A stretch of DNA of 64,000 nucleotides from Perna viridis (lineage: Eukaryota): the NCBI GenBank assembly GCA_037379345.1, contig CM074518.1, positions 15,686,001 through 15,750,000 on the forward strand, read 5' to 3'. A program made the translations under genes and the position numbers. Every line of letters starts with the position of its first letter. The stretch's first letter is position 1. Below are positions 3,553-41,200 of the stretch, one piece after another. The notes below the pieces were generated by a model. That model did no database searches. It was given only the letters and a program-made list of their open reading frames with translations, and was not told the origin of the DNA.

Positions 3553-4060
3553 CTAGTTCATAAATATAACAGAAACCTTGTCCGGATTCCTGTGGGTGCA
3601 ATAATCATTGGTTACATTTTTTCCTGTGAAAGGCTTGTTTAGATCAATACATAAATGTATATCACATGTAGGGCAACTATTCAACGAGAAATGCTCCAAA
3701 GCAGTTATTATGTACAAAAACCTGTATCATACATTGGCTAGACATGAAACAAATGACAAATTTTATTTTCAGTTATTATTTTTGGGTTACATTTTTGGGT
3801 TTCAATTATAACAAAAATACAAATAAATTATAACGCATGTAGTGCCTTCCTCAAATGTCCTTTGATAAAGTTGAAAACTACTCTCTCTGAAAATATAATT
3901 TTTGAAAGAATATTAATTTTCTTCATGTACACATATCTATACAATTACTTTTTTGCAGTGTTTTAATACCGCGGAAGTGTAGTTGTTAAAATCTCAATAT
4001 TCTGTTAAAAGGTGGAAATAATTTAATGTATCATTTTGTAGCTGCATTAATTAGAAACAA

Positions 4061-4780
4061 AACTTAGAAACACCCACTACAAAAAACTTAGAAATACACA
4101 CCACAAAACTTAGAAACACCCACTACAAAACTCTTAGAAACACCCACTTCAAAAGTCTTAGAAACATCCACTACAAAAAACTTAGAAACACCTACTTCAA
4201 AAGTCTTAGAAACACCCACTACAAAAAACTTAGAAACACCTACTAGAAAAAAAAAACAAAAAACAAAACAAAAAAAAAAAAAACAACGTAGAAATACCCA
4301 CTACAAAAAACTTAGAAACACCTACTAGAAAAAAAAAAAAAAAAAAACAACATAGAAATACCCACTACACAAAACTTAGAAACACCCACTACAAAACTCT
4401 TAGAAACACCCACTTCAAAAGTCTTAGAAATACACACCACAAAACTTAGAAACACCCACTACAAAACTCTTAGAAACACCCACTTCAAAAGTCTTAGAAA
4501 CATCCACTACAAAAAACTTAGAAACACCTACTTCAAAAGTCTTAGAAACACCCACTACAAAAAACTTAGAAACACCTACTAGAAAAAAAAAAACAAAAAA
4601 CAAAACAAAACAAAAAACAACGTAGAAATACCCACTACAAAAAACTTAGAAACACCTACTAGAAAAAAAAAAAACAAAAAAAAAAAAACAAAAAAAAAAA
4701 AAAACGTAGAAATACCCACTACAAAAAACTTAGAAACACCCACTACACAAAACTTAGAAAAACCCACTACAAAAGTCCTT
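4061..4780. repeat. Minisatellite, about 24-bp unit CTTAGAAACACCCACTACAAAAAA, with poly-A interruptions
   Basis: More than 20 visible copies. Confidence 0.95.
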
Positions 4781-5299: not shown

Positions 5300-5398
5300 T
5301 TAAATTGAAAAAAAAACTACCTTAAAATGCTTTGGATCTTTTTTGTTTTGTTTCTTTACTGCGACTCCAAAGATATCTTCATGTAAACGATTTTCTTC
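5300..5398 (-). CDS. NOS: NOS coding exon 24 ([26 protein letters not shown], then either VVFFSI-stop or splice after 5321)
   Basis: HEDIFG terminal FAD-shielding motif; AAG/GTAGTT possible donor; read-through TAA at 5300-5302. Confidence 0.9.
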   Translation of the reverse strand, partial: EENRLHEDIFGVAVKKQNKKDPKHFKVVFFSI

Positions 5399-8300
5399 CT
5401 AAAATATAATCCAAGAAACATGTCAAATGTAGTATAACCAACGAGTGATACTACTCACAAGATTGTTGGTTCATGTTCATTAAAACCTGGCAATTTAAAA
5501 TTTATCTGCTTTAATGATCTAGATAACCTTTATATCATGCTACATCCAGGAGTGGATGAGAAATATATTTTTAAAGAAATATGAAAAGATGGGAATTCTT
5601 GTTTATCCTCCTTTTTGCAAAGTAAATATATCCAGACAGAGACAACAAACAGGATACAGATAATGAGTGACCTTCAAATTATACTGAAATATAAACAAAG
5701 GTGCCACACAGTAACAGACTTTAGCTTTTTGTGTTATTCTTCTTTTACTTTAAAATCTCTTAAGTTGTTGCAGATGATGCTTCACAATTAGAATTGAAAT
5801 ATCTACAATGTTGTGATATGTCTAAACCCCTGCATGTCAAAATTACAAAACAAGGACGGCATAAAATAAGACAACTAACCACAAATAGTTTTTAAGAGCA
5901 TTTTTTAAGTAGGAGGATTCAAATATATTACTATTCACCATAGATGCACAGAAATGCGGCAGAAGAATTTTAATCGTTCAATTGAAACTGTTTTTACATG
6001 AAAAATTCTAAACGATGAACATTGGCCTCATGTAATCAGATTAATTGTTTACCGAATACCAATCACAAATCGTGATGCTAACGTTTTAATCTTTTTGAAT
6101 GTAACCTGTTGAAAGGTCAAAACACACATTTATTCACTTAATCGTGCATAAAATCTTAAACAGAATTTAATCATTCAAATACCTTCATTTTGTCAATGTA
6201 GTCATCAGCCTGCTTTTGCGATTTCCTACCGAATGACATGATTAGGTTTCGCAGTGATAGTTTTACATCGGAGGCCATCTGCACATTGCCACAGATATAC
6301 AAATGTCCATTTTCTTTGATCAGTTTCTTATAAACATCTCTCCCATTTTTGCTAATAAGATCCTGGACGTAGGTCTAGAAGAATAAAAAATAACCCAACT
6401 GTTTTTATTTTGAAGACGGACTTATAGTAACACTATATTTCGAATGTATTTGCTTCTTCAAAACAATTTGATTGACCTTAAGTTGAGATTGGATTTCATA
6501 TTAGAGTGAATACTCAGTCAAAAGACTCGGTTAAAAATGTGTTTAAAGTGTCAGTTGAAACTGCGAGAGCTATATCAGTTTAGATGAGTTTAGAAAATTT
6601 GTTTGTTTTTTTTTATCTAATGTCTTTGAACACATAGAATTCGACCGAATACGTTTGACTCACATGCAGTTTATGTTACCTGAGTATAAAGGGACAACTA
6701 TTGCGCTGTACCTGCGTATAATGATGTTTTGGGGCCGACTGCAGACTGCCCTGTGGTATGTAGGTTTTCTCGTTGTTCATTTAAGACCAATGGGGGCTTT
6801 TGGCTGACATATTCCTCCCGTTTGGATGTTTTCTCTTTGACATATTCACCATACCTATTCTCGTTATATTAAACACTTGTTTTTTTTGTCTTGGATATTA
6901 GAATAAAGTGGACCCTCATATTCCTGACATGTACAAGCGAGGATATTTGATCTATCGAATATGACCAGCTTTGTGTTAGTATAATGACGTGAGCTTGAAT
7001 TTGTAATGAGTTATCTCTAAAATGTGACAGCCTCGGTTCTGTGCACATTATCTCTTATTGCAATGCCCAAGTAACGAAATTTAAATGTTACTAAGTTGTA
7101 TACTTATGGTGAATTAAATGGGCTCAGCTATCGACAAGCTAAATGTTTTGTTGTTTTTATGCAAAACAATAATAATTTATACTGACTTTCTTGATTCCTG
7201 GTTCTCGGGAGAATGCAAAGAAACACTTTGTCAAAATTTGGTCTTTTTGGCAAAGCATCAGTTCTTCTCTGAAGATATTGTCACTGGTGGCATTACGGCA
7301 TCCAAAGTAGAGAATCATTTCGCCGAAGTTTTCTCGGAGTAAATCTTTAAGAAAAGCTTACAAATATACTGTAGACGAAAATGATTTTTACGGTTGCAAA
7401 TTTTCGATGATTCTGTCAAATGAACACATTCACGTGTATCAATTTTCGCGGTTTCACAAACGACTATAGCTTCATTCAAATTAAGCGTTAAAAACCAATG
7501 TCAGAAGTATCATAAAGTATTTTTCAGTATAGGAAATTCATGCAAAAGGGAAATAGGGAAGCAAATCCCTGTAGTTTAATTTCATTTTATATCTTTACAC
7601 ACATTAACACAAAAGAAACGCAATAAAATGCCAGAAAATGCACGTATTTCTTCATGAAAACTTAAACATGATGTATTGAATCAAATTGTGATGACAAACC
7701 TCTGGTTGAAGACAGACATTTGGTGTCATATTTTCTTTGCATCCAGAAACCTCTAAACGGTGCTATTCCCGTACCAGGACCAACCATAAGTATCGGAACA
7801 GACTGGAACTTCGGTAAGTGAAACAGCGGTGCTCTGTCATAAGATGATTCATAAAGGTTTAAAACATAATTAAAAGTTTCTAAGTAAAATTACCAGTTCT
7901 AAAATGTATTTTGTATCAATACAATAAGTGTTTCTGTAAGTTAGAAAAGCATTTTGAGTTCATGTATTTGCTATAAATGTGATTTGATCCATTTCGTACA
8001 TCAATTGTACGTTACCTGCCACCTAACACATTTTATTCAGTCAGTTTTTGGTGTTCATGTGAGGAGTAACCTTTTTTCGTCCAAGTATATTTTTTCAGAT
8101 TAGTTTGTCTCCTGAAATTCGATGTTTAGCGTTATATTTCACTGTGGTCACCTTTGTTACTAAGCTGATGTAAACATTGCCTATAGAACACAATCTGTCA
8201 ATATTTCCCTAAAAGCCAAACTGTTGGTTTAACTTACCTCCGCACTGAACACATAACTGTTTCACCTAATGGTAATTCGTTCAGCCAATTACTGCAAACA

Positions 8301-11300
8301 CCTTTGTGCTTTGTACCGTCTGAAACAAGTTTACACATACAAAAATAAACAAAGATTGCATGTGAAATGCCAATAAATTGTTAATTTGCTTAGATTGCTA
8401 AAACATCAATATTTGTTTTGAAGCGTAGAGGTAGAATTATATAGGATTATTGTGATCACCACAAAAAATTGTGGTCGTCATCATGATCTTTATGGTGTAT
8501 TTATCTGCACCATGAGACCAATTTATTCACTGTATCATAGTTTATCTTCTTTTTCCATATATTCCGGACGTGATCAACTCGGTGGGTGTTACAAAATTAC
8601 CATATACTACTTCGATCCAAAGTCAATGGAAGTCCAAAGGAAATCTAGCAAAATCGATATTACACCACAGAAACAGCTGGTACCGCAATGGTCCTGATTT
8701 AAGTGGTACTGGCATTTCAAACAAAATGGTGGTTTAAATTTATGTTTTACAGCGTGCTATACCTTCCTCTTACATTGCGACGTGAATATACCGTTGATGA
8801 TTGAATACTTTTTGCATGCTATTGCGCAATAATCGGTAAATCAGCGGTCACATCTACGCAAAGAACAATTTGCAAACAAAATGAATAAAAAAAATAAAGA
8901 TAAAAATAATAAATTGAAATAAATAAATAAAAATAAAAAAAAACAATCATCTTTATTTTAGGGGAATGTGAGCATTTTTCGACAAAAGAATAATGTCTTA
9001 AAATATTTGGTAAGACCTTTTGAAACGCATTTCCTTATACCCCAGATTCAGGAGATTAACGGAGATATATATATATATATTGTTAAAGGAAATCAAAGTA
9101 GTTAGTACTTGGTCTAAGCGTAGCGTTGCTGCATAGGTAAGGAAAATCTATCAACATTAAAAACGTCCCTTCTATCTTAGTGCTGAGATGACCACTGTTG
9201 CTAATTGTGTTATGTAGGTCCAAACATGATACAGAACAAGCTATTTCTGTAGTCACATATATCTCGAGCTCTGGTGGATATTGAAGTTAACCATTTACCA
9301 TACACTTTCAATACAACGGAGGAGTTTCCCTACCGGTGCAGCTGCCGTGGTCCATTTTTCCGTTTTTTTTGAGTCTGGGTTGCTTAGTTACTTTAGTTTC
9401 ATTACACGTGTTAGTATGGCTATTTAATGTTCTTTGTCATGTGTGTTTTAATTTCATGTTTATTTTCTTCTTTTGATACAATTTCGTTGATTGCCGTTTA
9501 AATCCTAGTTTCCTTTACTTCCCTTTCTTCAACGAAACTTTATTTGGGATTGTATCATGCGAAGTAACTTTTCTTGAATATCTTCATTATTAACAAGCCA
9601 ATAAAAAAGTAAAGTTTATAGGCATTGTTTAAGTATTACATGTAAGTTTAGAGAATTAATAACCGATCCTAATTTCTGGAAGATTATTATTACCCGGTGT
9701 CTGATATTCCACTACTTCAGCTGTTACATGTATTTCACCGGGACAAGCATGTAAGGATGAACTAATACTGTAATATCTTGGCTGTAGTAGCGGAAGTTGT
9801 GTCAGTAAGAAAGCAGGAGATACATGTAAGGATGGAAACATACGTATGACCTCACAAATATTTGGCATTCCATGGCTCTTCCAGTCGTTATAAGCTCTTG
9901 AATTCTACAATGGCACATGTAAAATCATAAGCGTGAAGCTTGTTTACGACATTGACAATAGCAAAACATTCGCAGACGATTTTTCTTTGAAAAAGACACA
10001 GAGATATTCAATCCTACATTAACGAGAAGAATGTGCAAACCTGATCTTATCCATCCCCGAAAAGTAAACGATTTGAAATAATAAACAACAATGTCCCAAA
10101 GCTTTAATACACTATGTATATAAGGGCATTTTTTATTTGTATATTAATTATATACATAGCTGCAATCAGTAAAATGTCAATTGTAGAGTGAGGATGTATA
10201 TCACTTTGAATTATTTAGAGGATTAACTTACATTTACAAGTCTTTTAATCTTGAATTTGTCCTCTGATGTTTCTGCTAGATTAGACAAGACGTTGAGAAA
10301 ATCTTGAGTGGGCGGTGTTGCGATGTCTAGATATTTTGACAGAATCTCCTCCAATGTATCAATTGGTAGTCGATTGTAAACCTTCCATTCACTGATTACT
10401 ATAGAAATGTATTGACTACTCGTTATTTTTCCACATGTATATAGTAACCTTATGATTCAAACTACTACACACTAAGAACAAAATATAAAAATAATTATTG
10501 TTAATGAAGGAATCAAAATTTAAGTTTGAATATAGAGGCAGAAGCAACGATTTTTATTATGGTATCGGATTTTGAATATAAACAAAATCTAATTGATTTA
10601 CGCAATATCTATTATGGCATATAGAAATACACTGCATTTTTTTAATAGTTATATATAACAAAGCAGCTTACACAAATTGTAAATTCGTATGCTAAACAGT
10701 AGATATTGATCAACAAAACTAAAAAAGACAACCAAATATATTTAAGTTATAATTAATGAAAGTTTAATGAATATTTACTGAAGTTACCTGCAGTAGATCC
10801 ATGACACTGAGTCCGCCTTTCTATAGTTATAGGTGTGTTTTCAGAGGGAACATCCTTTAAAGAGGCAATAAGTTGTTGTACTTGTTTTTTAGTGTTCTCT
10901 GGATACAGTAACACGTGATCTCCTGGACTAAACTGCAATAGTTCAGCAAACCTTCTGATATCGATCTTTGCTAGTATCGTTTGATGGCTGAAAATATATT
11001 TGATATGTGTCATACTAAAGAATATTTCATCATAGAACATGGTCGTATATAGACATGAAATATAGCTCAAATAATCGAGTATTTCTTAGCTATTTCTTTT
11101 TAAACGGATTATTAAAACAAGATTAATGTCCAACTGTTACAGTGTAAATTCGGTCAAATTTCAATACTTTTGGTTATCCAAGTTCTACAACAATTTAGGC
11201 AAATTTAGCGTTACATTATGATAAACAAAGATGTTTCCTCTCCAAACACAAACACTAAAACTAATTATTAAAATAAGGAATGCAGCATAAAGTGACACCC

Positions 11301-14300
11301 TTTCTTAACTAACTCCCATAATGAACCCATAAATTCAAAATGTCAATGTTGCAGTCAGCAACTCATGACAGCAACCAAAACTGCTAAAGATTATTGTCAT
11401 CGTTTCAATATCAATTATAGTATAAACTTCCACTTAATGACTCTTGTAAAGATATATATTTCATCAGTGCAAAAATATAACAAACCAAAAAACACCAACT
11501 GAGCAATGAATTCTTGATACCGAATCCCATTTTCACGCTGATACGACATAAATCCGAATATGTTAAGTCTACTTTTATAGACTGTTATAGAATAGAATAG
11601 CAATCGAAGACTAGCCTAGTATATTTCTTACTTGATATTTTTGATTTTTAACTGATTGATATTGAAGAAATAAACAATTAAAAGAAGAACATCAATCAGT
11701 CGACTTTTACACTATACAAACTGTATTTAATTTTTTATGTACACAATTGTAAATGTGCTGCCTAAAACAAGACTGATGCTTCACTACTCCACTAAATCCA
11801 TATTTTGTATATCATTTTCTGTTCGAGTATTCATGACAAAAAAAAAAAACAAAAAAAAACCAAAAAACCTATATTTACCTGGATCCTCTTAAACTAAGTC
11901 GTTTTCTGTCTTTCAGCTTACATGGGAACACTTGCTTTCTGAATAATCTGCTAAGCTCTTTGATATATTAAAGAAGGAAGGATCCACGTTAACATTAGAA
12001 CATGACAATTGACACTGAATATATTTTACAATGGGTAAAAAATTATCCTATATTAACATGCTTTTCACGTGAATTATCTTACCTGAATTTCATGTTATTT
12101 GAAATTTATGTAAAAGCTCGATTCACAGTAAATTCACATGAGATCAGCCACATGGTTTTTGCTTAATTCGGATGAACACCATAAGAAATCTCTAAATATT
12201 TACTACAGCAAAACAATCCAAATGAACATTATAAAATTATCCTATCTTATCGTTCGTTAAGTTACCTTCGTGAGATGGTACTTGTGTATTCACTGCTTCA
12301 ACCAGTCTGTATTTTCCTTGGCTCCAGCTCGTATCTGCTCTTTCCAACACCTCTGATACATTATAAATTCCATGCTTGCCTCCAATATTAAAAAAACTGC
12401 ATGCGACCTGTTAAGCATAAATCAATCAAGGAAATATTATCACTTTCTTTGACACACAGAAATAACTTTCTTAATCATTCGCATATCTTAATTAAGTTGC
12501 ATATTGTCCCATTTTTTTCTTTTTTATAATTTGATGTCTTTTATTATCAATACATATAACCTGACAGTCTCGGCAAGTTATTTATCACACTCGATTCGTG
12601 AATTGTCTTTGGAATAAGAAGGAAGCACATGATATGAACATAGAACATCTTATCCACAATCCACGGACGAAGAATAACAAAACGCCACAAATTTACAAAA
12701 TAATAATATACACACTAACTAATAAAAATAAAAGCAACATATAAAATCTACTTAAATAAACCAAAAGTATACTTGTACATTGTAACTACAGAAAAAAAGA
12801 CATATGGACTCCGCTAAAAGAGTAATCAAGGGAACCAATATTCTAGCGGAAATTAAGAAAGAATGTAATCCGTGGATAGAATTCGGTCCTGGGAAACAGA
12901 CGCATACAACAAAGAACATAAAATAACCAAAATAATACATACATACATAGTAACAAAAGTAAATGAACAACCTGGACTCCACTAAAAACTTGGAGCATGG
13001 AGTAAGCGTCCTCTGCTGTTCTAGAAACACCCACCGAGTAGCTCATAAAAAGTAAAGTCCAGTGAGGAAGAAAGGGGATAGGAAAAACTCTGATACGTTG
13101 AACAAATCAGTTTCCATGGGGCAGATGGGCGCACCTTAGAAATGGGAGTATAACTACAAAAAATGGAAACAACAAAATAACAGAACACTTATCCGATCCA
13201 TTACCAAGTCAAGGCCAAAACAAATCTGCCAAATGAATATTACACCACCGGAGCAGCTGGTATTCAAGGAGACACATGGACTCCTCCTAAAAAAACTATT
13301 TTCAAACTGAAAAAAACCACATACATGGACTCCACTAAAAATTGGGGGTATAGACAAAAACACTGGTAGAGTTAACAGTCTCTGCCTTTCGAGAATTACG
13401 CACCGACTTATTAATATGTAATAAAATACCAGTGTATTACATATTGAAGCTACTAAATTGTAAAGACATAGCGAGTTAAAAATGACATATAAAAGAAATC
13501 ACACATGAATGTATTATCGAAGTAAATAACGTGATAAAATAATCGAATCAATTTACTACACTGTACTGCATTAAAAATATAAAAGAGAACTACATAAATA
13601 TTGCGTTGGTAAAATGTTGGAACTGTAGGCCATTATTGTGATCAGTGTCTTCCTATTTTTTTAATACTGATAAAGGTTCGTACTTCATATATAAATTAAC
13701 AATTGGTGGTTTATAAAAATATGAAATAAATGTTAAAGAATTTCCGGCCTAAATATTTAAAACGGAAATAACAAATTATACAAAGGACTGTTCCTTGTTA
13801 TGAGGCACCATTATTTATAAAGATATCTTAAATTTCAATCACAGATTACATATATAAAGTGAAAGGTGACTTAATGAGGACAGCCTGCTAAACCGAATAA
13901 AACATTGTATGAAAATCTTCTGAATTCTGATGTTCAAATTCAGATATATTTTCAAATATCGTTATTTTCCTTATTGGAAGATTAAACAAATGAAGTATGC
14001 ACCAAGTGATATAGTATTGTTTTGATTATATCAGATGCAGATAATCTCCAAAAACAATGTTATATATCTGCCATTACCATATCAGAACATGTAATACTTA
14101 AGGAACTGCTTTTTGTTGGCGATGTCTACTAAAGATTCGCCCGTTAAAGAGTTTCAAAGCATATAATCGAGAAATAAAACAGTTTCTCAGCTCAGTATTG
14201 AATATGTGTTTATTTCACATACAAATCAGAGGGATATTATTTATTATTGGTTGTTTTATTTATTTCTGTCTTTTCTCTTCAGAGGTAGTAATATTGTGTT

Positions 14301-17300
14301 TATCAATAAAATCTGTGTCAAACATTGATAACTTGATTTATCAAAGGTGTTACTTGATTTCACTCAAGTAAATGCTCATCCAAAACTATATTTCACCTTA
14401 CCTGATAAACCTTTTTTGCCCAATGGCGAAATGACTCTTCCTGTCCACATAATTCATCGCCCTCTCCCAAGCTATATATTCGTGTTGCACCAAGTGATTC
14501 TATTGTTTTATCTATTAATTGGCTGAAGGCGCAAAACTTTGGGTAGGCTCTAGATCCTAATCCAAACACACTGAACTTGATATGACCGAGTGACTGTGGC
14601 AAATATCTGTTTGACTGTCGACTCGAAAATCTGCTGTGGTTGTCATTGTCATATTTTCCACTTTAATATGCAGTGATTTAATTATAATACAAGGGCAAAC
14701 TAGGGAAATAAAGCTGCTATTCGTTTTCGCAATAAATACTACTTGTAACAGTTTCTTTATTTCATTATACTAGAACTTGTCGTTACTTGAGCAAGTCAGT
14801 GTTTGTTTCTGGAAAGTAATGTTTGCTTATTCTACCGGTTTATCTTGTCCATACTCCAATTGTTTAGTGGAGTTCGGGTTTCTCATTCATTTTTCCAGTT
14901 TCTGTGTGTATTATTTTACGAAAGTGTTACCTTTGTGATTTGTCAGTGTTCATGGTTTAGTGTTTGTCCTTAAGCTTGGATCATGAAAATAATGTTCATC
15001 TTAATCATGGTCTACGGTTTAACTATACAACAGTAGAGTATACTTATGAAACAACAAGAAGAAAGTCTACCGAACAGACACAGTAACAAAACACAACATG
15101 TCATTCCCTCTATTAGTATACATAGGGATTCGACCAAATAATTGACAATAATCCATGATCATTTTCTTTAAAAAACTATGATAGCAACATTCAGTATGTT
15201 TATACAGCTGTAACTGACTTACATTAAACGTCCTGGTAATTCTTTGATTGTCGTTAATGCATGTGCAAATGTCTACAAATGATTTAATATTTCAATGAAC
15301 ATGAAAATCTTACACAGTGAAAACCGTCTATTATTAGAAGCCAAACCTCTTCCGACCTTTACAGTTAGTCTGGTTTAGACAAGTGTTTGGTCCACAAAGG
15401 TTTTACTACATTCAACATTTTTCATTCCGTTTGTATTGGTGTCTCTTTGACATATTTACCATCGACATTCTCGTTATAATCAAATTGTTAATATGGACTT
15501 TAAAAAGTGTCTGGCTCAGACAGGTTTATGTAATATACAATGTTTAGTACAGACAGGTTTCACAGTAGTTAATGTTTCCGATATGTATCAATTAGTCACG
15601 TTACTCTCATATAGATGTTATAATCATTCACAGTGTTAATCTTACTGGAAACCATTTTTGAAAACTCGTGTCTCAAGTATCATGCTTTTCCTGTTAATTC
15701 GTATCCCATGATACGGGAAAAACCTGGTTTTGGTACAACAAAATGCCACCAGTTGATTGGACATATCTAACATGTACCACATACTTTTTTTTAAAGTACT
15801 TCAAAGTTAATCTGATTTCTGACTGACCTATTATATTGTATTTCAAATCAGATTGTATCATGACCATTTTGTACTTATAATTTGCATTAAGTGTTATAAA
15901 CTAATGTTTCCCTTTTCTGTTGTTTAAAAATGAAAAAAGGTTAAAATAAACAAGATAATACCTTTCCATTCTCAGGTGGATCTCCGTTTCCGAATGTACT
16001 TGTTACAAACAATATGAACTCTTCATGTTTAAGTTCTTTGATATTATAATGATCCATAATCAAAACCTGTAAAGTAATATTCTAGCATTCTTTCTTCGAG
16101 TAATTGTGAGAAGATCTCGGCCCTGTCATTGATGTTTCTATATGCAATTTAATTAAGGTAAAACAGATCAACTAAGAACAAACAAAAAACTAATACTTTT
16201 TCATTATTGTCCCTTACATTTTGTCTACATATTCATTGTTGTTTAAAAAAAATGGTATTTTCAATTAACTAAATTATATAACAATTTCATTCCTACCCGA
16301 ACATTGAAGTTTTGCCTGAACATTTTATGAAGGGTATTGGCAAACATCTCTGATTTTCCTGTTTCAGTAGCATACAATATTGTACACTTTACTCGCTGTG
16401 CCATACTTTGTTTCATCAGACTAAACCATTGGTAAATAACACTGAAATCATGAAAAAGAGATTGGAGGAAAACAAATAAAAGCTATCTTCTCAACTCCTT
16501 TACACTGTCTTCAGTTGGAAAAGGGAAATCTAGGGAACCAGGATTGGAGCGGTAATAAAAGAGAACATGAATCCAAAAACACTGACAAAACGAAAATAAC
16601 AGACACACATAACGTACAAAGAACAAGATATGATAAAAAACAACACACACATCAAACGTAAATGAGATTCACACGTGGAATATTTCATGTAATGATTAAT
16701 AGCGTACTTGCATTAAACCTGCAATTTCCATCGATCCAACTCTCAGTGTATGGTTTAAAATCGAAACAGTTCATTCATCTATTTGATTTTTGTCATCAGT
16801 AGGTGAATCATCCTGTGTTATAATTCCTTTTTCTATCTTGTTTCTATTCCATTAAATCAGACATTTTTCCTCGTTTTCCAGGGCCAACATGTTTTTTATA
16901 TAACTAGCACTATGACAATTATTTAACAATTCGTTGATCGTCATTTTGGAATATTCAATTTATATTGACCAATGTGTGGTTAGAATTATGTCACATGACT
17001 CGATGAACTTTTACCAACCTCGACAGAATCTTAAAACTCAGTTTACGTCTCGGTTTTGGTTGACGCACGTATTGGTCCTTTCGCCATACATAGGTTCTCC
17101 AGGCTTCGTCCTACCAAGACAACTTTTGTTTTACTTAGGTTACAATATTTGTTTTAGATTTGGAAATGAAATGGTGAAACGCCTAGTAAATCTACCAATA
17201 TTATAATTGAATCAATCTTTCTATACAACTATAAAAACGAAAAGGTAAAAATTGTACTATGCATTTCTTTAAATAAAAATTGCTGTAATTAATGACAAAA

Positions 17301-20300
17301 AAATAGTGTTTTAAAGGTAGTAACATGCTCGTTCAGGTACCTGGTGATGAAATAAAAACTGAAACTCATCATTACAATGTAAAAATAAAGACATTGAATC
17401 TTTACGTCAAGGTTAAAAATCTTGCGTCTGGTATCAAGTGTTTAAAAATTGTTAAGTTGTACGATATGTACAAAACCGAGATTTGTTCGTAAAGTTACCA
17501 TTAATGAATACAAGAGATTATCAATAACATAATTGAAAGTAGTGGAAGCTTTTAACAAATCACCCTCCCCTTTGAGGCAATGAGACAATTAAGTTTGCCA
17601 AAATATAACATGTTTGCATTTTATCAATGGTACATGTACGTTGGAAAGTCATTTATTTACTATCTACCAGAAATAGATGGCAGATTTCGGGAGTCACATG
17701 TATATGTACTAATGTATCACAACAAGTATAGAATTCCGAACTATTACGGCTTTTACTTGTACCTGGTATTCGTAGGAAGGTTTCAATTTAAACAACAACA
17801 TTTCTTGGTGAAACACAGACATCAGACTCCCACTGATAGGAGGAACAATCCAAACCCAATCAGCTGGGCATCCTCCTCTTTGTCTGTATTCGTTTTGCAT
17901 AAAATTCATGAAAGATTCTGATGCACTGTGATGATCGACAATGGTAGCTCCTACAGCCTTATACAAGAAATGAACCGATCAGAAGTCGTCGCAAAAGCAT
18001 ATGACGTTGTAAATGATATCATTCTTTCAAATTCCACATTTGATGGTCGCACAACAAAGCTAGAGACAATATGTACTATTTGATTAATTAATTTAAGTTT
18101 TTCGTCCTATGGTGAGGTCTTGTTTTCGTTATCTTTAATTTTATATGCATTAAGTTAGGTAATTCTTATGTTATCTACATTGTGTATGTATAGTCTTTGT
18201 TTCCTATTTTCACGTTTTGTCATGTACTTGAAGTTTTATGATTCTGGAATGTCTTTCTTTTTTAATGATTATGGAATGTCTTTCTATTTTTATGCCTTGA
18301 TATTTTTACCTTTATATGGCAGTAATATATTGTTTTTTTAAAATATACCCGAAAACTGTGAATAACTGCGATGTTGATTTCTACCACTGCTTTGTCGCGC
18401 CATAGAGAGGCATTGCTTTTAGTGTCAAGGCCAATTGCTCCAGCTATTTTCTGCAATGATAAGCAGTATGCAATAAAGTTATGTATCAAAAGTGATAAAT
18501 TTGCAATATGATTGATTATCTATTTGATCTCCATCTATGAAGTATATTATCCTTAGCTGTGTCTCATGATGCTAATCTTAATGAAGCGATTCGGACAGTT
18601 ATGTTTATTTATAACCACTCTTGTTTTCATAATCTCCTGGCTCTGGACAAGTACCAAAATTGTATGTCTTTGTTTGTTGCGATAAAGTTAGAGTGAAATT
18701 GAGATGTATGGGAATGTGCTGGCCACAGTGTGAAAGTTTGAATTCTTGAAAGTAGTTAGGAATGAGTGGTGAAAGTGAATAGATGTTCATTATTTGACAA
18801 AGTAATTATATATATATATATATATCCACAGAGAGTGAAGCGGGAGGGATTTTGGATAAAAGAACTCCGTGTTTTACACCCACACGAAATTAACAAAATA
18901 CGTTAAGTTCTTCCTATTTTGTACAGTTTCTTATAACAGTGTTTGTAAATATTTTCAGTTTTATGGTTCAGTATTCAAGATCAACACACAACGTGTGTCT
19001 ATAACACAATGTTCAAGATCTTTCTTACTGTCGATAAAATATTATACGTCACAGGTATTCACCTGATTAGGTAGTGAGTTGTGATCACAGACCATTTACT
19101 TTCATATACACTCAGTTTATTCAAGGCACTGAAGAAGGTCATTTGTTGACTGAAAATTTTGCTCATTATACATTTTATTATAGTCTATAAACATCATTAT
19201 CGGTATCGTTGTTCAATCCGTTAGACTTATATAATTTATTTGTTTGTACTGCATCATCATGACTCGACGATCCGATACCCATTAAATTTGCTGGTTGGCA
19301 GATTTCTTTAGACTTAATTTATATATATATATAAAGTCTAAAGGAATCTGCCAACCAGCAAACTTAATGGGTATCGGATCGTCGAGTATAGATATAAAAT
19401 AAATATGTATATAAGGACTATGACTTGACTTAAAACCAGTGCATAGAAACAACTCGGTTACATGTGTATAATGTGTCAACAAACTATTATTTGCATGTTG
19501 CAGAGTCTTCTATTTATAAAAGCAGATCGTGCTGTCATCACTAAACTCCAAATTTGATGATCAATTTAAAAATATGTTAAACTGCGTACTCGTTTATGTC
19601 TTTATTTCAAACGATCGGAAACCGGCAAATGTACATACATATAAAATGTTTGTTCTTAAAACTGCACGCAAAATAGGTAGAAATGAGAATTAGTCAGAGT
19701 GATGTACATTGTTTCCACATGCGTTGTTCATTTTTTCCGTACCTCTAGCATGTTATATCTATGCTTATCACACAGATCTCTGGCACCAACTTCTGTCCCC
19801 ATGTACCAGCCACTGAATGGACAAGCTGTAAACTGTAGACCGCCACAGTCTAACATCATATTAGCCACTGCTGGGAGACAATACCAACGGATACCAAGTT
19901 CTTTGATTCCTGGGTATCTACACACGAAATGTTATTTTACATTTTTTGCTTTTGTTTTGTGTTTTATCTGTACTAATAATTTTTTGTTTAATCACTTTAA
20001 CTTTTTACTTTTATATTGATTGTTTATACTTATAACTCTTATTATATTACTATCATTTAAAAGCATCTAGAGCAATACTTATGTGTGACGAAATTAAGAA
20101 AAATGAGGTCAATACGTTTACACATGATAGGTAAATAAAAAGATGAGTCAGGCACTTAATCGTGAAATTAGGCTTTCTAAATCTGTAGTAAACGTATTTA
20201 TATGTAACTGACTGTCGTATTGTGCAAAACAAAAAAAAAAAAAAAAAAAATCCATACATGCAAAACAAAATAAAACAAAACAAAACAGATTAAGTAAATT

Positions 20301-23300
20301 ATAGGAAAAGTTAGATTACATTGTTTTTTAACTCAAGTAAAATCATAAGGATTCTTTGATAATAAGAATTCTGTTAGTTGAGCTTAAAGTCAGACGGACT
20401 TCTTGGCTTATTCGTGAAGACTTCCCGCAAATTTATGATATTTTTGTTTTATTTTTTAAAGGTGTGTTGATTATAGATTTAGAGTGTTGAAAGGAGCATT
20501 ATACAGTCTACAGGGTACGAGGTGGGTGTTTACCTTGGATGTGTTATTTCAGCCTCTAGAACCAGTTCGTTGGGGTATTCAAACCATTCTGGATCACCTC
20601 CGTTTGCTTGCATTACCAATGGTAAAATATCAAACATACCAAATTTCCCCTTCCATCCCATTTTCATACAAATCTAAAAAGGTCATATATGCGGTCGTAA
20701 ATAATTTAAAATATGTTTAGCTTTTTGTGTGTGGAAAAACCCCGTGTTTAACCTCTAACGCGGGTTTTACGGTTTAAACACTTGATTCAGGGTTATTCTA
20801 ACGTCCGTTTTTGTTAATGTGGGGTCATTTCCTGAAAAAAAAAGCGTAAATAAATTGCTCTAACAAATGACTGTTTAGTTAATCTAAACAGCAATATGAG
20901 CATCCGGTGCTAAAATGGACGGATATAAACAACTACCGGCGTTAACAAAACCGTAAATTCGGCGCTGAAACCGAAAAACAGGCGTTAGGGGTTAGACACG
21001 GTGATAAAGAATAAAATGCATATGCAAGCCACATTTTAAAGCTTATGCACTAAAATACAATGAATGTTGCTAGATGTATTACATTTGATGCAAATAACCA
21101 CCAAGCTGATGTACATGTTTTAGACAACATATAACTATTGGCATTCAACATGTCTAAACTCTCCCTGCTAATTTTATTTACTATCGGGCAACTTCATAGT
21201 GAATTGCTTAAGAAAGGAAGACAAATATTTGGCAAACTATTTTATCTCATTTTGTGCAATATCAATGATAAACTGACACTGATCCATCCTCGGCTCTGTA
21301 ATAAATATAACCAACTCTTTGATAAACGTTATTACAGAGAATTTCAATTTTATAAGCATTTCGTTTTATCTTACCAAACTTATTCCAGATATCAAAAATG
21401 TTTTGTTTTATTACCTCGTGGTAAACAAAATTACTTCAACAATTTTACCGCTAGTATATCACTATGGGATTTAGAGGGTTTTTATAATACTTTTAGTGTG
21501 TTTCTTTCGGTACAAGTGTGTTGCTGATTGCTTCATTCTCTTTTGTTTTTAATTGTTTTTTTTCATCGACTTTCAATTTAATCGTCGTTAGCATTTATAT
21601 AACTAACCTCGGTAAAATGTGCGTTCATTGGATCCCCGATAATTATACCGTCTGCTTGCCTGTATCCCGCATACATGATCAACTGGGTATTCCATATCCT
21701 AAAGTCGTGATCATTGTCATTTCTCTGCCGGAAAACAGTAATTGCCGACCTTCAATGTTTAAGTAAGACTACATGATACTTACGACTCTATTGCATACAC
21801 AAGTCTAATTTGAATACAATTGAATACACAAATTAAAACGCTTCCAACAATTATTTTATTTTCCCAATTATTGTAGTTTGAGCAGATAAAAATAATTGCA
21901 CTTCAATTAAAAATGATAACCGATAGATTCGTTTACAAAAATGTTCTATAGTCGTAATAATCGAAGTGTTTATTTAAGGAATGACATTATTAATATTATT
22001 TTTTCCTGCTCTATGAAGAAATAACCTCAATCACGTGGTGCAAACAAAATAATATGCGTATCAAAATACAACTCTAACGTTAACTCTGTTCAATTTATAC
22101 ATGTAAAACAAATATATGCAACCGAAAACGTCAGTAAACGTCGGGAAAATACAGAAATTTAACTTATGTTGGAAAATTCTAATCGTGCATTAGCCCTAAT
22201 CCAACTCAAGAGCAGAGGTTTTCATAATGTTTTATGTGTTTCGATTGATGGTAGTAATATCAGAGACCAGCACATCTGCTTTTGGTAATTAGTATTGAAC
22301 CTAAAGTTACAATAACAGCCCATACATGATAATTTGTTAGCTACTCCAATTAATTAAACGAAATGCAAATTAAATAACTGTGAAAATTCTACCTTAGTAG
22401 AGTCATATGAATATGATCACCTTTTCGTATATAATTTAAATACATCTTCTTATGTAAATTATACCGTATAATTCAGAAATTAAAATATTAAAATATCCAG
22501 TTTATCAACTTTTTATTAGTTGTTATTTGTCAAATAAATTATGTAAGAGATAAGGAACCCAGTCACACTACAAGCCTATTCAACTAGCATTGTTATATGC
22601 ACCAAATATAAACATATTCAACAGGGTGAAGAAATTAGTTATTAGTAATACAAATATTTAACTTGCGATTTAATTCTAAAATTTCATACGACTAATTGGA
22701 AATAAATTGATTTCTAAATATTTTCTACAAAAGATATAAAATTATTTTACCACTTGATAAATCTATAGTGTATTGGTGTCTTTTTGCGCAGAAATACAAG
22801 TAAGGTTATTTACAAATCGATTTCTAAAACATATTTTTATGAAAACGTTAATTAAGTTCAATATAACTATATTTTCGATGAATAATGCAATCAAAAATTT
22901 CAAAAGACATAATTTATAGAACGAAATAGTATTAAAACAAAGCCTACAGAAAATGAATAGGTAATATCTGCTTAGTGGTACAAACCACGAAAAAGTTACT
23001 AGGAAGACGTTCCGATGGGAGTAGTGCCAATGAAAAGCCATCTGAGCAAAACCGGCTTAAAGAGAGGTCTGATCTATCCTACATGCACACTCGACCATAA
23101 ATAAAATAAGCCTTTCCCGTTACACGAGAATTAAAGAACAATGGACTGGACAGACCAGTGCCAGTCGTGAACCAGTCACTCTTGGTATACGGATACAGCT
23201 TAGTTAACCTTCATTAAATAGAAACTAGACGTGCGGAAATTTTTAAGACATCATTATGCAAAATGAAAACTCACCTGAGTTTACCGCCGTTAGTAGCATA

Positions 23301-26300
23301 CTTCATGTGTCGGCAGATAACCTCAAACATCCCACTTGCATCAGTTACATCTCGAGCATCGAACAACTACAGAGAGATAAATCGTTTGTTAATTACTCAG
23401 ACTCCCAAACTTGACTAACTGGAGGGAGATTACTATATATGTCGTTCGTACACAGTGAAGGTACCATATGTACATTATTCTAAAGTACATGTATTATCCC
23501 AATAAAGATAAATTGATTGAAGAACAGAATCATATGGACACGAAGATTCGTTGAATGCATTATGCATTTATATTTGTGGAACATTTATTCCCCTTGCAGC
23601 AGATAAAAAATGCATACATTTATATCAATCTGATTAAAAAAGTCAATATAGTTTGGAGAAAGCCTGATCAATGGTTTCTTTACATTCGTCCCGAGAAACG
23701 GCAGTTAATTTATGTGCTAGGGTAAGATTGTCATACAGCTGTATTTCTACAATATATAAATGTAATATTAGACCATTTAAAAAGCAACAAAACAAAACAA
23801 ACAACAATCATAACAAGACGCATTTACTTGAAATGTACTTAACCTCCATGCAGGGATGTAAATAGAAACAAAAGTAGTATGAACAAATTCAGTAATGACT
23901 CAGATAACTTAATTGCCTGTAAATTTGACCACTGTATTCTCCCAATACATCGCGGCGCATTCCTCCAACCTGTTTTGGCACCGAATTGTAGCTCTTCTGT
24001 TGTCATATGATAGGTACCGGTATCTTCTATTGATGTCTTCACTTCAAGCCATCTTCTAGTGTGTTGTGCCGAGTCCTTCCTGCTCACAAAGACAATCGCT
24101 TTAATGATTGAAACATGCAGAATTTAAGAAGACGAAAACTTCTCCAATCTTTGTGTTTTAAACTATAGATACAGGTTTGTCATTTATAAATAAAATAAAA
24201 AAAAAGTTTTTAAATTTCAAATGCAATTACCACAATGCCCGTTAATGTGTATCACACCCTGCAGATACTGGAGCTAGATTTGTTCTTATAGGTTTAGTGT
24301 ACGTTAATCCAGCTGTTAGTACGTTTCTGCATGCAAAGTAATAAAATAAACCTAAACATTTGGCAATTTAACCGACAAGTACTGGCATGATTGCAGGAAA
24401 GACAGCTTTTCGCTCATAACAGTTTTTCATAATTGCAATTGCACAATGCAATATTAATGCTTTAAGCAGTTTGTACTAAATACACCGCAACGGAAAGTAG
24501 TCTGATTTAAGCACAAAATTATTACCTTACTTCTTCATACCTTTTAAAACTAGAAAAGTATTGCTGAAAAAAATCTTCTGCTTCAGTCAGTATTTCTTCT
24601 TTTAATTTTGGTTTCTGTTTTGTCAAAGTTCCCATTAAAGAACCTTTACACTTCGATCCGCATGCAATATTCTACAAAACATTTGTTTTCAATCAAGGAA
24701 TACTTCTGTTCAGATGTCTGTACATCTAATAACTACCAATAACAATTCGAAACCAATAGTCAGTATATTATTCTCACGTATTTGCATGTGTTTGGAGTGG
24801 CAGGATCTGAAGTTTAACTGGATATGTGTTTGGTGTACCACTCCTTATAATGATACAACTGTCCATGATATTGTTACACAAAAACATATACGTAATAGGT
24901 ATGTTTATATGCATATACCAATCAGACATCAAGTCGTGTCCCTATAGAGTTTATGATTTATAACGTTCGTCTTCTGAAGCAAATCAGGGTTCTTACTAAG
25001 AACGACCATGTTCAGCAGGTTATATTTTATGGTAAATTAGATGAATTATTGAGACACACAGGCATTTGTTCTTACTTTAATACATTCATTTTAATAGTTT
25101 GAGTCAAATATAATGCATTGAAGTGGCTTGCATTTGCATGATTCGAATGATACATGCTTCTGTGTCAGGTAAAGTGGTTTTCTTTCAAGGGCTGGCCACT
25201 GTCTAATATTCAAATATGAAAGTTTGATATTGACAGGTCACTGATACAAACATGTATCCTTGTTCAGTATGAATTGTACATATGTTTCATGATTTTTTTT
25301 AAATCTTAATATGTAGAAAAGCTCAAACATAGGTTATCTTAACTATTTATGTACATAATATTGAATCACTCTTAGAGTTATACAGTAATTTTTATACGAT
25401 TATCGTCAATTATTCTTTCCTAACGTCGACAGTAGATATCAATAAGACAGTGGGAATTTTAGCCTGTTCATTTTAAGAAACAATCGAATTGTTTAATATC
25501 ATACGCATAAATGGGGCAAATATGTTACAATCGGAAGTATTGTCATTGAAGTCAAACTATGCCCCACTTTTTAACTCTTAATAATTAAATTGTGTTGCTA
25601 ATTTTGTTCACAATTATATATTACATAACTCTAGTAAAATCATTCATGTCTGCACAAATATTTGCTTTCTGTTATATGTATTTCCGAATAGTACTGTTCT
25701 CCGAACAATAGGGCGGAATAATAACAGACCAAATGGTTGACATAAGACATCGGCAAGAAAGTATTTAATCTTTATTGCGTTTAAGATTTGTTTAAGACTT
25801 ACTCAACATTGTGATACATATGACAAGTTATTTTCGAATAAAGGTTACTCTGAGTACGTCGACAGAGGAACGCTATCAAACTGAATAATGTGGCATGAAT
25901 CTGGTGTATAATATAGTAATTAAAACTGAAAATGAGAGGTTCTAATGAGCCTGGATCTGGGTCATTTACATGGGGAAATGAAATAATATATTCGTATCAT
26001 TTGGAACAAAATGTCCTTCAATTATATCATTTCCAATACCCGCTGAGCCATTGGATCATTTGTAAAGAGAATTGAGATCAACACCCCTTTAAGTTTCAAA
26101 ACAATGGCACTTGAGGTTTCAGAGGAGTTGATCTTTAAATGAATAAAAAGATCAAAAAGAAAAAAAATCGACAAAAAGACAAAGAAAGATCAATACATTT
26201 TAATAATAAATAATTCCATGGTTGGATTAAGCCATGCTGAATACGAAAACAGCCCATCATTTAGTAAGTGACATATTTAACATATCCATCTGAAGTAAAA

Positions 26301-38212: not shown

Positions 38213-41200
38213 CTAAACAGAAGAACATGTTAATCTGAGTTATATGTGCTATAAGGATGCTGGTACAAATTCATGAAATAGGAATAGAAGTCGGAGTGTA
38301 TAGACTGATAATAATAAAAAATGTATTATAACATATGCAAACTGGATACAATGATATGGAAGCCATTTTTTGGTATCCCGCCGTTAATAAATTACGTTAA
38401 AATTTGTAAGCTGAGTCTGCCTAAGGAGAAACCTATTGTTAATTAAAAAAAATGTTGACAACGGCAAACAACTCACAGTCTTGATATGATTTATAACATG
38501 TTTGTAATATACATATGGAATTTTCTTTTGATCTTATAGTCAAATAACCAACTTAAAACTGTTCACCTTTAAAAACCATGGTCTTACATGACGATTTGAT
38601 ATTATATAATGATTTTCACGTCACTGAAAATAAATCATTCATTTGCTTTACAAGTAAGTAATGGTCTAACATAAAGATTCAAACTTTATTCCATAGTTTA
38701 AACCCCGCCCATCACAGTACGTAAAAGGGAGATACATATATGGACAACCACCAATTATGAAGTCAATATCGGGTAAGAGCGCGTTACTACGGCAAATATT
38801 GTTTATTTTCTACACAGTAATAAAATATCGTAATCATTTCAAAAATTTTGAGGAACTACTTTTGTACATTTTAATTCATGTTCAGCTTTGTCTTCTTTTA
38901 ATCCAATTAAGTCTTAATGACTTGTGCTGTAATAAGTCTATCATAATGTTGATTTTATTGTAGAGCTCTAGAATGGCACGCCTACTTCTCTTTTTTATAA
39001 GCATCCTTTCGAAGGAATACACTTTTTTCCAAATTTGAAAAGTCACAGTTTATAAAGGTTTCCACAATACACCAATGAATATCCACCACGAATTAACATA
39101 CACTGTTAATCTAGAATAACATAACAGGAGAAATGTGCCATGTTTTGTCGCAACCTCGAGTAGAGTGTAATTTGTAACAGTAACTTCTATACATTTTTAC
39201 TGTGTAGTCAAGTATTTGATAGTCACCAATAAACAGATGTGTTAAATAATTATAATCCAATACAAACTGGGTAATGTTCATTCTATTTGAGAAGTTTTTA
39301 TATTCCATTTCACCGATCAAATTCTGTCCTAAATTTATGACTTGATCGGTAAATAAATTTATCTTAACATCACTCAGTTGTATTCTGTCACCTACATTTA
39401 CTCCAGTTTCTCGTTTATCACTTCTGGTTAAACCCAAGCGTGTAGTTGAGTGTGATATTATTCAGTTATTATCACCTAGCGTCCAATTATGTGGCAGTTT
39501 TGTATTCTCATTTACCTAAAGTACATTTGTTTTGGTAGGTTGAAGATTTTAGTGGCGTAGGTCTGAATATCGTTTTACAATGTTGAAAATACGTTGTAGT
39601 TCTGCTCTGGAACGGAGTACGGCTACTTCATCAGCACATGTTGGTATTGCAATATAGATGTTTCCAAGTTTTAACCCAATAGAGTTTCTCTCAAGTTCTT
39701 CAAGTAGATCTTGTAAACATGTATTATTTAGAAAAATATAGTTTAGAAAAAGTGAGTCGATCAAATGCCTTTTTTGTTTTTTTTCCAAATCCTTTACTGT
39801 GATCTCCCTTACATTTTACTTTTATAGTTAATCCTGTGTATAGATCTCTGATAATCAATAAAAAATCCGGTTGTACACCTTTATCAAGTAATTTGCTGAA
39901 TAAGAAGACTATTTAAATGTCTACCCCGGACTTGACTTTTTATGAGCAACTCGGCGAGTGTTTCTAGAAAAGCAGAGGACGCTTACCCTACCGGTGCACC
40001 TGGTCCATGCTCCCAGTTTTTAGTGGAGTCCGAGTTGCTCATTTACTTTTGTTACTTTGTATGTATGATTTTAGTTACTTTATGTTCTTTGTTGTGTATG
40101 TCTGTTTTCCATGTCTGCTCTTTGTCCCTGGATTACATTCTTTTGATTACCGCTATAACTTTGGTTACCTTGATTACTCTTACAATATATATTTACTTAT
40201 TTCCTCTTATGCAGAGATTTTCACATGAATAATGAAAAGGAAAAACGATTATTATTATATGAATCACATAAAAATGTACTAAATATCAGAAAAAAAATAA
40301 TGGGAGTGAATCGCTGAAAGTTACACAGGAGGTGGTAAAAAATGTCCTTTATGGAAAGTTTTGTACATTCTGAAGGTATACTGTAAGCAAATTTTATTGA
40401 AAAAGTCAAGTTCATCACTTTCTAGTTCGAAATCAGTATTGCAGGATAAGATATTAACAGGGAAGTTAACAGGTGCTACACTGTCTAGGTTTACGCTAAA
40501 CTGAATTGGACTAATGTTAATAATGTCTTTCCAAAGATCATCACGTTCGTCGTTCAATGTACTACATGAGACTAAGATGTGTTCTACGATATTTGAAAAT
40601 AACATCCCACATCGATCACAAGGTAATATGTTATCGTCTTGTTTAATAACGGAACATAAGTCATCAACATATTTAGCTGCTTCTCGTTGTTCTGGGTAAA
40701 GGTTTGCTATAGTCCAGGCACGGTGTGGTTTAATTTCGCTTTGTATACATCTGGATAGGGTAAAATCCTCGTCGCTTGACAGCATCGAATACCACTCAGA
40801 ATGTTCAGTCTTTTTATCTGATCCCTGACAATAGCTGACCATGTTTTCTTTGATGGACATTTACCAGAGTCCAAAAATGTAACAAGGTGTTCTGTCATAT
40901 CGTATTTATGAGCTAGTCTATACACGTCAGGAATAAGACCCAAGTTTTAGAACATTTATATTTGAATTCGAATAGCCTGGTCATCATAATCCTTCTAGGG
41001 AATGCATTCGATTTTAGTCTACATATTCTGCCAAAGAATAATAACTTGCATTTATCAATGTAACACTCGATGCTGAACTAACCTAACAAACTTGTACAAT
41101 TGTCCGAACATGTCCGTTTCGAGAGTCCTTGTAACGTTTTACATGCGAATTTATGTGACCGGTCAAGCATCTCAGTTTCAGATTGAGTTAAGCTTCTCCA

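Follow-up and report, generated by a model that had tools for sequence, protein, structure and literature searches.

The window, a stretch of 64,000 nucleotides of the Perna viridis genome, carries on its minus strand a PDZ-less NOS gene of 24 coding exons (5300..26522), which we modelled under the guidance of Mytilus proteins. From the first modelled exon, the frame is open and intact over about 1148 aa, with the candidate start at a Met at 26501 or in an exon further upstream, and the heme, substrate, pterin, FMN, FAD, and NADPH motifs were all located in it. Pfam PF02898 and motif location identified the heme Cys, substrate Glu, and pterin Trp motifs of an animal NOS oxygenase, and the FMN, FAD, and NADPH reductase is fused in the same single frame (five central joints come from contigs, the rest is modelled from DNA). 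The motifs quoted in the original prediction all exist and belong to the minus strand of this gene; none of them is on the plus strand, and a plus-strand reading was dropped.

All features given below are on the minus strand. The zinc-tetrathiolate motif, Cys-X3-Cys, lies within one exon (24648..24662). The heme-thiolate motif WRNAPRCIG (23941..23967) is in an exon modelled from DNA only, with a GC donor at 23916; this exon ends in WSNLQ, where the paralogues seem, also from DNA only, to run on with Val codons (GT). The last oxygenase exon (17763..17957; Pfam PF02898, joint in contigs) holds the pterin-binding DWVWIVPP, and is followed by a linker exon (17019..17110; joint in contigs) with the first half of the calmodulin helix and its anchor Phe at 17035. 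An intron with partial contig cover in runs X5 and X6 (16442..17018) splits the helix, and the next exon (16297..16441) carries its second half (Gln 10, Trp 11, Leu 14) and the start of the FMN domain. Then come an FMN exon ending in GDPPENGK (15962..16066; joints in contigs), a mini-exon of 50 nt seen in contigs, with the first 16 codons of a 45-aa segment (15223..15272), and an exon with the rest of the insert (RFSS at 14632-14621) and FSVFGLG (14402..14660), for which 14660 is the observed acceptor. The 21-aa beta-finger segment (10379..10830, split by an intron at 10787-10399) and the C-terminal tail (5300..5365, 21 aa if unspliced) were read from DNA only.

No PDZ domain match was found in the whole 64-kb window, and the paralogue at C9:14.06 Mb gave a strong one. 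The locus is an intact, spliced, PDZ-less NOS gene whose fast-evolving branch contains, among the sequences compared here, those of mussels only, and its predicted activity is NO synthesis from arginine. As for its surroundings, a 24-bp tandem array with poly-A runs lies just downstream (4059-4777), and a broken LINE-like retroelement spans about 40300-46100 on the minus strand, where the ORF 42380-42772 matches RVT_1 and its neighbours resemble endonuclease/RT pieces. A MIF-family gene of two exons matching Pfam PF01187 (48597-49833, minus) shares the strand of the NOS gene and lies about 22 kb upstream of it; a conserved MIF-NOS linkage was rejected, with no MIF match near the other four NOS loci.

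Out of 24 listed runs, four (X5, X6, X12, and X13) were compared with positions 14300-18100, the stretch to which the RNA coverage refers; X1-X4 (0.82-0.85 of words) were left out. X5 and X6 come from two studies and were listed as 'RNA?' by guess, and we took them as RNA because their joints are GT-AG. Joints 17763/17110, 17019/16441, 15962/15272, and 15223/14660 were present in the contigs of both runs and 16297/16066 in those of X5, and one X6 contig crosses three exons across the insert. Being contig-based, this evidence drops rare forms and may miss minor acceptors. From the raw runs X12 and X13, of which 19% and 24% were read, came only repeat-derived reads and about one pair on the gene. 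A short intronic repeat at 15493-15527 attracts many reads from elsewhere.

The calmodulin helix had been read across the 17019/16441 intron, and this spliced reading was right, with the joint in X5 and X6. The segment between GDPPENGK and FSVFGLG had been put at about 45 aa at most, and it is exactly 45 aa (59 in the retrieved nNOS, 17 in the retrieved iNOS): the contigs, at a depth of about 5, join 15223 straight to 14660, and therefore the segment has no extra exon. The original prediction had named such an exon between 14660 and 15223 as a finding that would refute it; the contigs of both runs skip that intron whole. Six open AG-GT candidates in 14661-15222 and eight in 15273-15961 were also rejected, as both introns are skipped whole and show no exon-like cover.

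Several phase-compatible acceptors had been proposed to tune calcium sensitivity. Four further in-frame AGs do exist (14633, 14630, 14621, and 14606), but their count is not beyond chance: the insert exon has four, the 18 other exons of the gene have 0-3 (mean of all 19, 1.7), and the same exon in four paralogues, including the two canonical ones, has 4, 2, 3, and 3. Choosing among acceptors 14660-14606 would give segments of 45, 36, 35, 32, or 27 aa, and 14630 and those beyond would cut into RFSS or delete it. The acceptor in use is a weak one, with AAG and only a short pyrimidine tract, and a small matrix from 22 acceptors of this gene gives the tandem site at 14630 a higher score; however, real sites are poorly resolved by this matrix (leave-one-out -3.9 to 5.1), canonical paralogues have in-frame AGs just as often, and in the C5 paralogue the position that gives the long form (46 aa) holds a strong acceptor. 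Only the farthest acceptor, 14660, was seen, in two of two informative runs. We consider calcium tuning by acceptor choice very unlikely, and the calcium setting is likely fixed by the gene, not by splicing.

Only the intron that splits the helix is covered by contigs, at its two ends in X5 (16414-16518 and 16851-17048) and inside in X6, and reading through it stops after nine codons, which would leave an oxygenase-only protein. Drosophila has NOS variants that act as dominant-negative regulators. That retention of 16442-17018 makes such a regulator an additional, or even the main, product of this locus is nevertheless highly improbable, since the cover is only 2-5 deep, both runs contain the spliced joint, pre-mRNA or DNA explains the cover, and the read-through varies among paralogues.

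The genome contains five NOS loci, two canonical ones on C9 and three divergent ones (in the window, on C5, and on C9). The canonical paralogues have segments of 55 and 52 aa and a standard helix, and one has a PDZ exon; the segments of the divergent C5 and C9 paralogues are 46 and 42 aa (DNA only). The second canonical-type NOS (C9 58001-98000) showed no PDZ in the examined stretch and has GDSPENG for GDPPENG and a mini-exon of 41 nt, which is 50 nt in the other three of the four paralogues.

For the phylogeny we used a quick IQ-TREE run (LG+G4, SH-aLRT only) on 60 of 64 rows, leaving out P0098, P0134, P0068, and P0082; helix, insert, and beta-finger columns were removed, and paralogue rows were tblastn mosaics. 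Three of the five genome NOS loci and five Mytilus proteins (P0001, P0002, P0003, P0009, and P0121) form a clade (SH-aLRT 100), sister to canonical mytilid NOS (support 100) and far from vertebrate iNOS. This mytilid-only clade supports the independent origin that had been proposed, and the tree does not place the gene as an orthologue of vertebrate NOS2. The clade is PDZ-less, with short C-tails and Cys-X3-Cys. Within it, the window gene and the C5 paralogue form their own branch; identity to the window NOS is 69% for the C5 paralogue and 56-62% for P0002, P0003, and P0009. The nearest proteins and the tree alike indicate a mytilid mussel. We found no description of this clade in the open-access papers searched; subscription journals or supplements may have one.

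We compared the 22-residue calmodulin helix with 12 of 19 iNOS, 56 of 57 nNOS, and 18 of 21 canonical mollusc proteins, the others having no parsable site. It had been described as closer to iNOS than to nNOS, which the scores do not bear out: the BLOSUM62 score is 33.0 against iNOS and 34.3 against nNOS, and identities are 7.8 and 9.0. Its hydrophobic character leans to iNOS but is intermediate, in a sequence equidistant from both: hydropathy is 1.09, lower than in all nine distinct iNOS helices (1.38-2.22) and higher than in nNOS (0.13-0.51) and canonical molluscs (0.24-0.45), with a range of 0.92-1.53 among six scored members of the clade. The lack of acidic residues is non-discriminating as an iNOS sign, since 56 of 56 nNOS helices scored show it, although these are mostly non-mammalian and do not include the mammalian Glu-bearing form quoted in the original prediction. 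What is iNOS-like in the helix is that positions 3, 9, and 13 no longer carry a charge (Ile, Tyr, and Ser for lysine). Position 10 is Gln, whereas all scored helices of iNOS, nNOS, and canonical molluscs have Phe there. Of the six clade members scored, five have Trp at position 11. Position 5 of the window helix is Ser, vs. Val/Ala in iNOS.

The 45-aa segment of the FMN domain is 10 aa below canonical mussel NOS (55) and 28 above iNOS (17, no insert); it ranges from 35 to 47 aa in clade members with sound models and from 52 to 55 in canonical mytilid NOS. In place of the full insert of canonical molluscs (55-69 aa, with a Y-x-R-M-S core), the window NOS has an R-F-S remnant only, and the insert charge is 7 K/R and 3 D/E vs. 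7 and 10 in the canonical Mytilus NOS P0005. Counted ungapped from the splice joint, R-F-S would stand in register with the K-M-S of the canonical paralogue, which we take as the counterpart of R-F-N-S in vertebrate nNOS (P0109), an element with a regulatory role. With this register, the 10 missing residues would come from the acidic stretch behind K-M-S. In phmmer, the insert was not aligned to solved nNOS structures.

Retention of the beta-finger had been correctly anticipated: in our DNA model it has 21 aa, as in nNOS (21) and not the 14-15 aa of iNOS, and it lies outside the interval given in the original prediction, with its joint read from DNA only. It is an ancestral retention, since nearly all molluscs have 21 aa. 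In the DNA model, 21 aa follow HEDIFG as the tail, vs. 6-23 in the clade, 33 in nNOS, and 38-100 in canonical mollusc rows, and the V-T-L-R...R helix that nNOS shares with canonical mollusc NOS is not seen in it (a further exon is possible). A candidate donor-like site follows tail codon 15. Before it there is a four-T run (5318-5325), the C5 paralogue stops there after 14 tail codons, and the tail length of the window NOS may hinge on one base or a further exon. In the AlphaFold model of the clade member P0003, used as a stand-in (mean pLDDT 77.6), the zinc motif, calmodulin helix, insert, and tail are all below 50.

The absent PDZ, short tail, and hydrophobic helix could suggest a full convergent iNOS, with calcium-free calmodulin binding, high output, and induction by infection. 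The near-absence of reads in the two raw RNA runs points the same way, as does the database label 'inducible-like' on relatives, which is an automatic name, and an iNOS given an insert is reported to be still active at low calcium (PMC10904358). However, the segment is 45 aa, not 17, the helix falls under every iNOS helix in hydropathy, and Phe10 is lost. A kB-like site at 26512 was also discarded: it is a single palindromic site, not above chance (0.33 expected by shuffling) and missing from the C5 paralogue. Besides, amphioxus NosB, devoid of loop and PDZ, is linked to gastrulation (PMC10342570). A complete convergence on iNOS seems to us distinctly unlikely.

The zinc motif, which the original prediction had not mentioned, is Cys-X3-Cys in all eight clade members, whereas both canonical paralogues have Cys-X4-Cys. 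Among 308 retrieved proteins, 258 have the heme motif, of which 217 are Cys-X4-Cys, five Cys-X3-Cys, and 36 had no parsed motif; the five are all Mytilus clade members, so that 217 of 222 parsed motifs are Cys-X4-Cys. By eye, none of the 36 heme-motif proteins outside the parsed set showed the three-residue spacing. A further 140 representatives included 79 with the heme motif (23 four-residue, one three-residue, 55 none), and the lone three-residue case, P0430, is a distant 460-aa protein matched by a loose pattern. According to a 2013 review, all animal NOS seem to share a conserved Cys-X4-Cys (PMC3701330), a claim that the motif found here contradicts. The window NOS departs from this spacing and keeps both cysteines, with putative zinc binding, and we treat it as a variant feature, not as loss of NOS membership.

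Codon differences between the window gene and the C5 paralogue are 29 synonymous and 9 non-synonymous in the FMN exon and 20 and 5 in the oxygenase exon; these core exons are under purifying selection. In the helix, 9 of 17 codons differ (2 synonymous, 9 non-synonymous differences), and the gene appears to be maintained while its calmodulin helix moves. Such change relative to the closest paralogue would also fit relaxed constraint. This could still be an ordinary, strictly calcium-dependent NOS, a fast-evolving duplicate that has changed by drift: the stem of the clade is long (0.36) along the entire protein, also after removal of the regulatory columns, paralogues differ in their helix, and 28 insert residues, the basic remnant, and the beta-finger length are kept. 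Yet helix, insert, tail, and PDZ have all shifted together towards iNOS in all clade members examined, and duplicates of abalone, pearl oyster, horseshoe crab, and amphioxus show parallel shifts. We regard drift as rather unlikely.

Regarding those parallel cases, abalone and pearl-oyster duplicates sit on long branches of their own, with segments of 25-43 aa in abalone and 22-27 aa in pearl oyster, and the segments of amphioxus and horseshoe-crab proteins are 27 and 21 aa. Short-insert duplicates had separate origins in abalone, pearl oyster, and amphioxus. NOS has duplicated independently in molluscs (PMC7926364), and the repeated rise of short-insert duplicates is an already known pattern. 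In the abalone duplicates (P0024, P0028, P0030, P0042, and P0045), the calmodulin region is unlike the canonical helix, and they are a stronger candidate for a calmodulin-independent animal NOS. In decapod NOS-like proteins (P0016, P0017, P0056, and P0093), the insert is very long (91-121 aa) and the tail measures 2-5 aa.

The reading that we prefer, at slightly less than an even chance, is that the PDZ-less NOS of the mussel clade still requires calmodulin but would be activated at a lower calcium level than canonical mussel NOS. The lower calcium dependence, part of the original prediction, is plausible from the protein features, and the case for it rests on the short C-tail and missing PDZ, both overlooked there, as much as on the insert. 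Ile, Tyr, and Ser at the lysine positions 3, 9, and 13 of an nNOS-type helix would tighten calmodulin binding as in iNOS. An insert that has lost 10 mostly acidic residues and kept the basic R-F-S would weaken autoinhibition, not remove it, and a tail without the helix by which constitutive NOS restrains its FMN domain would raise reductase output. Output would then be set mainly by transcription, because basal expression looks low. Deleting the insert in eNOS lowered the calcium need about 7-fold with calmodulin still required, and the NOS C-tail is inhibitory (PMC10904358); the same regulatory elements are listed in PMC3509625. Some points count against this reading: the helix, having Ser 5 and Gln 10, could bind calmodulin less tightly instead of more, the loss relative to the mussel canonical insert amounts to only 10 residues, and the beta-finger length is constitutive. 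The tail and the R-F-S register are read from DNA and from an ungapped count starting at the splice joint.

A bolder version is that mussels evolved their own family of calcium-independent, high-output NOS by a route unlike that of vertebrate iNOS, keeping most of the insert, rebuilding the helix around a new Trp anchor, cutting the tail, and re-spacing the zinc clasp to Cys-X3-Cys. We hold this to be unlikely. If true, the re-spacing would be an animal exception to a motif thought universal, with altered dimer stability or redox control.

The immune role that had been attached to this NOS is unsupported. Bivalves are usually described with one nNOS-like enzyme doing the immune work. Scallop canonical NOS, which keeps PDZ and loop, is induced by LPS and TNF (PMC3724850), and so NOS structure does not predict an immune role. 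The five loci, three of them remodelled, offer a natural series for learning whether calcium dependence is set by the helix, the insert, or the tail, and qPCR and inhibitor studies of mussel NOS may mix paralogues.

Compared with known systems, the closest are the Mytilus 'NOS1-like / inducible-like' proteins, which like the window NOS are PDZ-less, with Cys-X3-Cys, Trp 11, a 35-47 aa segment, and a short tail; they are on another branch than the window NOS and the C5 paralogue and are uncharacterised in the papers that we found. In canonical mollusc NOS (Mytilus P0005; scallop CfNOS, PMC3724850; Crepidula, PMC7926364), the domains stand in the same order, the cofactor motifs and the 50-nt mini-exon are shared, the beta-finger also has 21 aa, and the introns next to the insert have the same phases. 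Canonical NOS differs in having the PDZ and a 55-69 aa segment vs. 45 here, whereas the window NOS has the short tail and Cys-X3-Cys, and the helices have 6.3 identities over 22 positions.

Vertebrate iNOS (NOS2) is likewise PDZ-less, with hydrophobic helix positions 3 and 9 and a similar tail length, but it is non-orthologous, and the window NOS has 28 insert residues, a longer beta-finger, and Cys-X3-Cys. Amphioxus NosB, placozoan NOS, and the abalone and pearl-oyster duplicates share shortened inserts, are lineage-specific, and have been proposed as inducible-like (PMC10342570, PMC7400543), with intermediate inserts in placozoan NOS (PMC7400543). Their origins are independent, and those examined are Cys-X4-Cys where the motif is present. 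Finally, the NOS of Ostreococcus tauri has the same Cys-X3-Cys zinc motif, with zinc binding unproven there, and is reported to retain about 70% of its activity in the absence of Ca-calmodulin (PMC3701330). It belongs to a green alga and its insert is wholly absent, and the shared spacing would be convergent.
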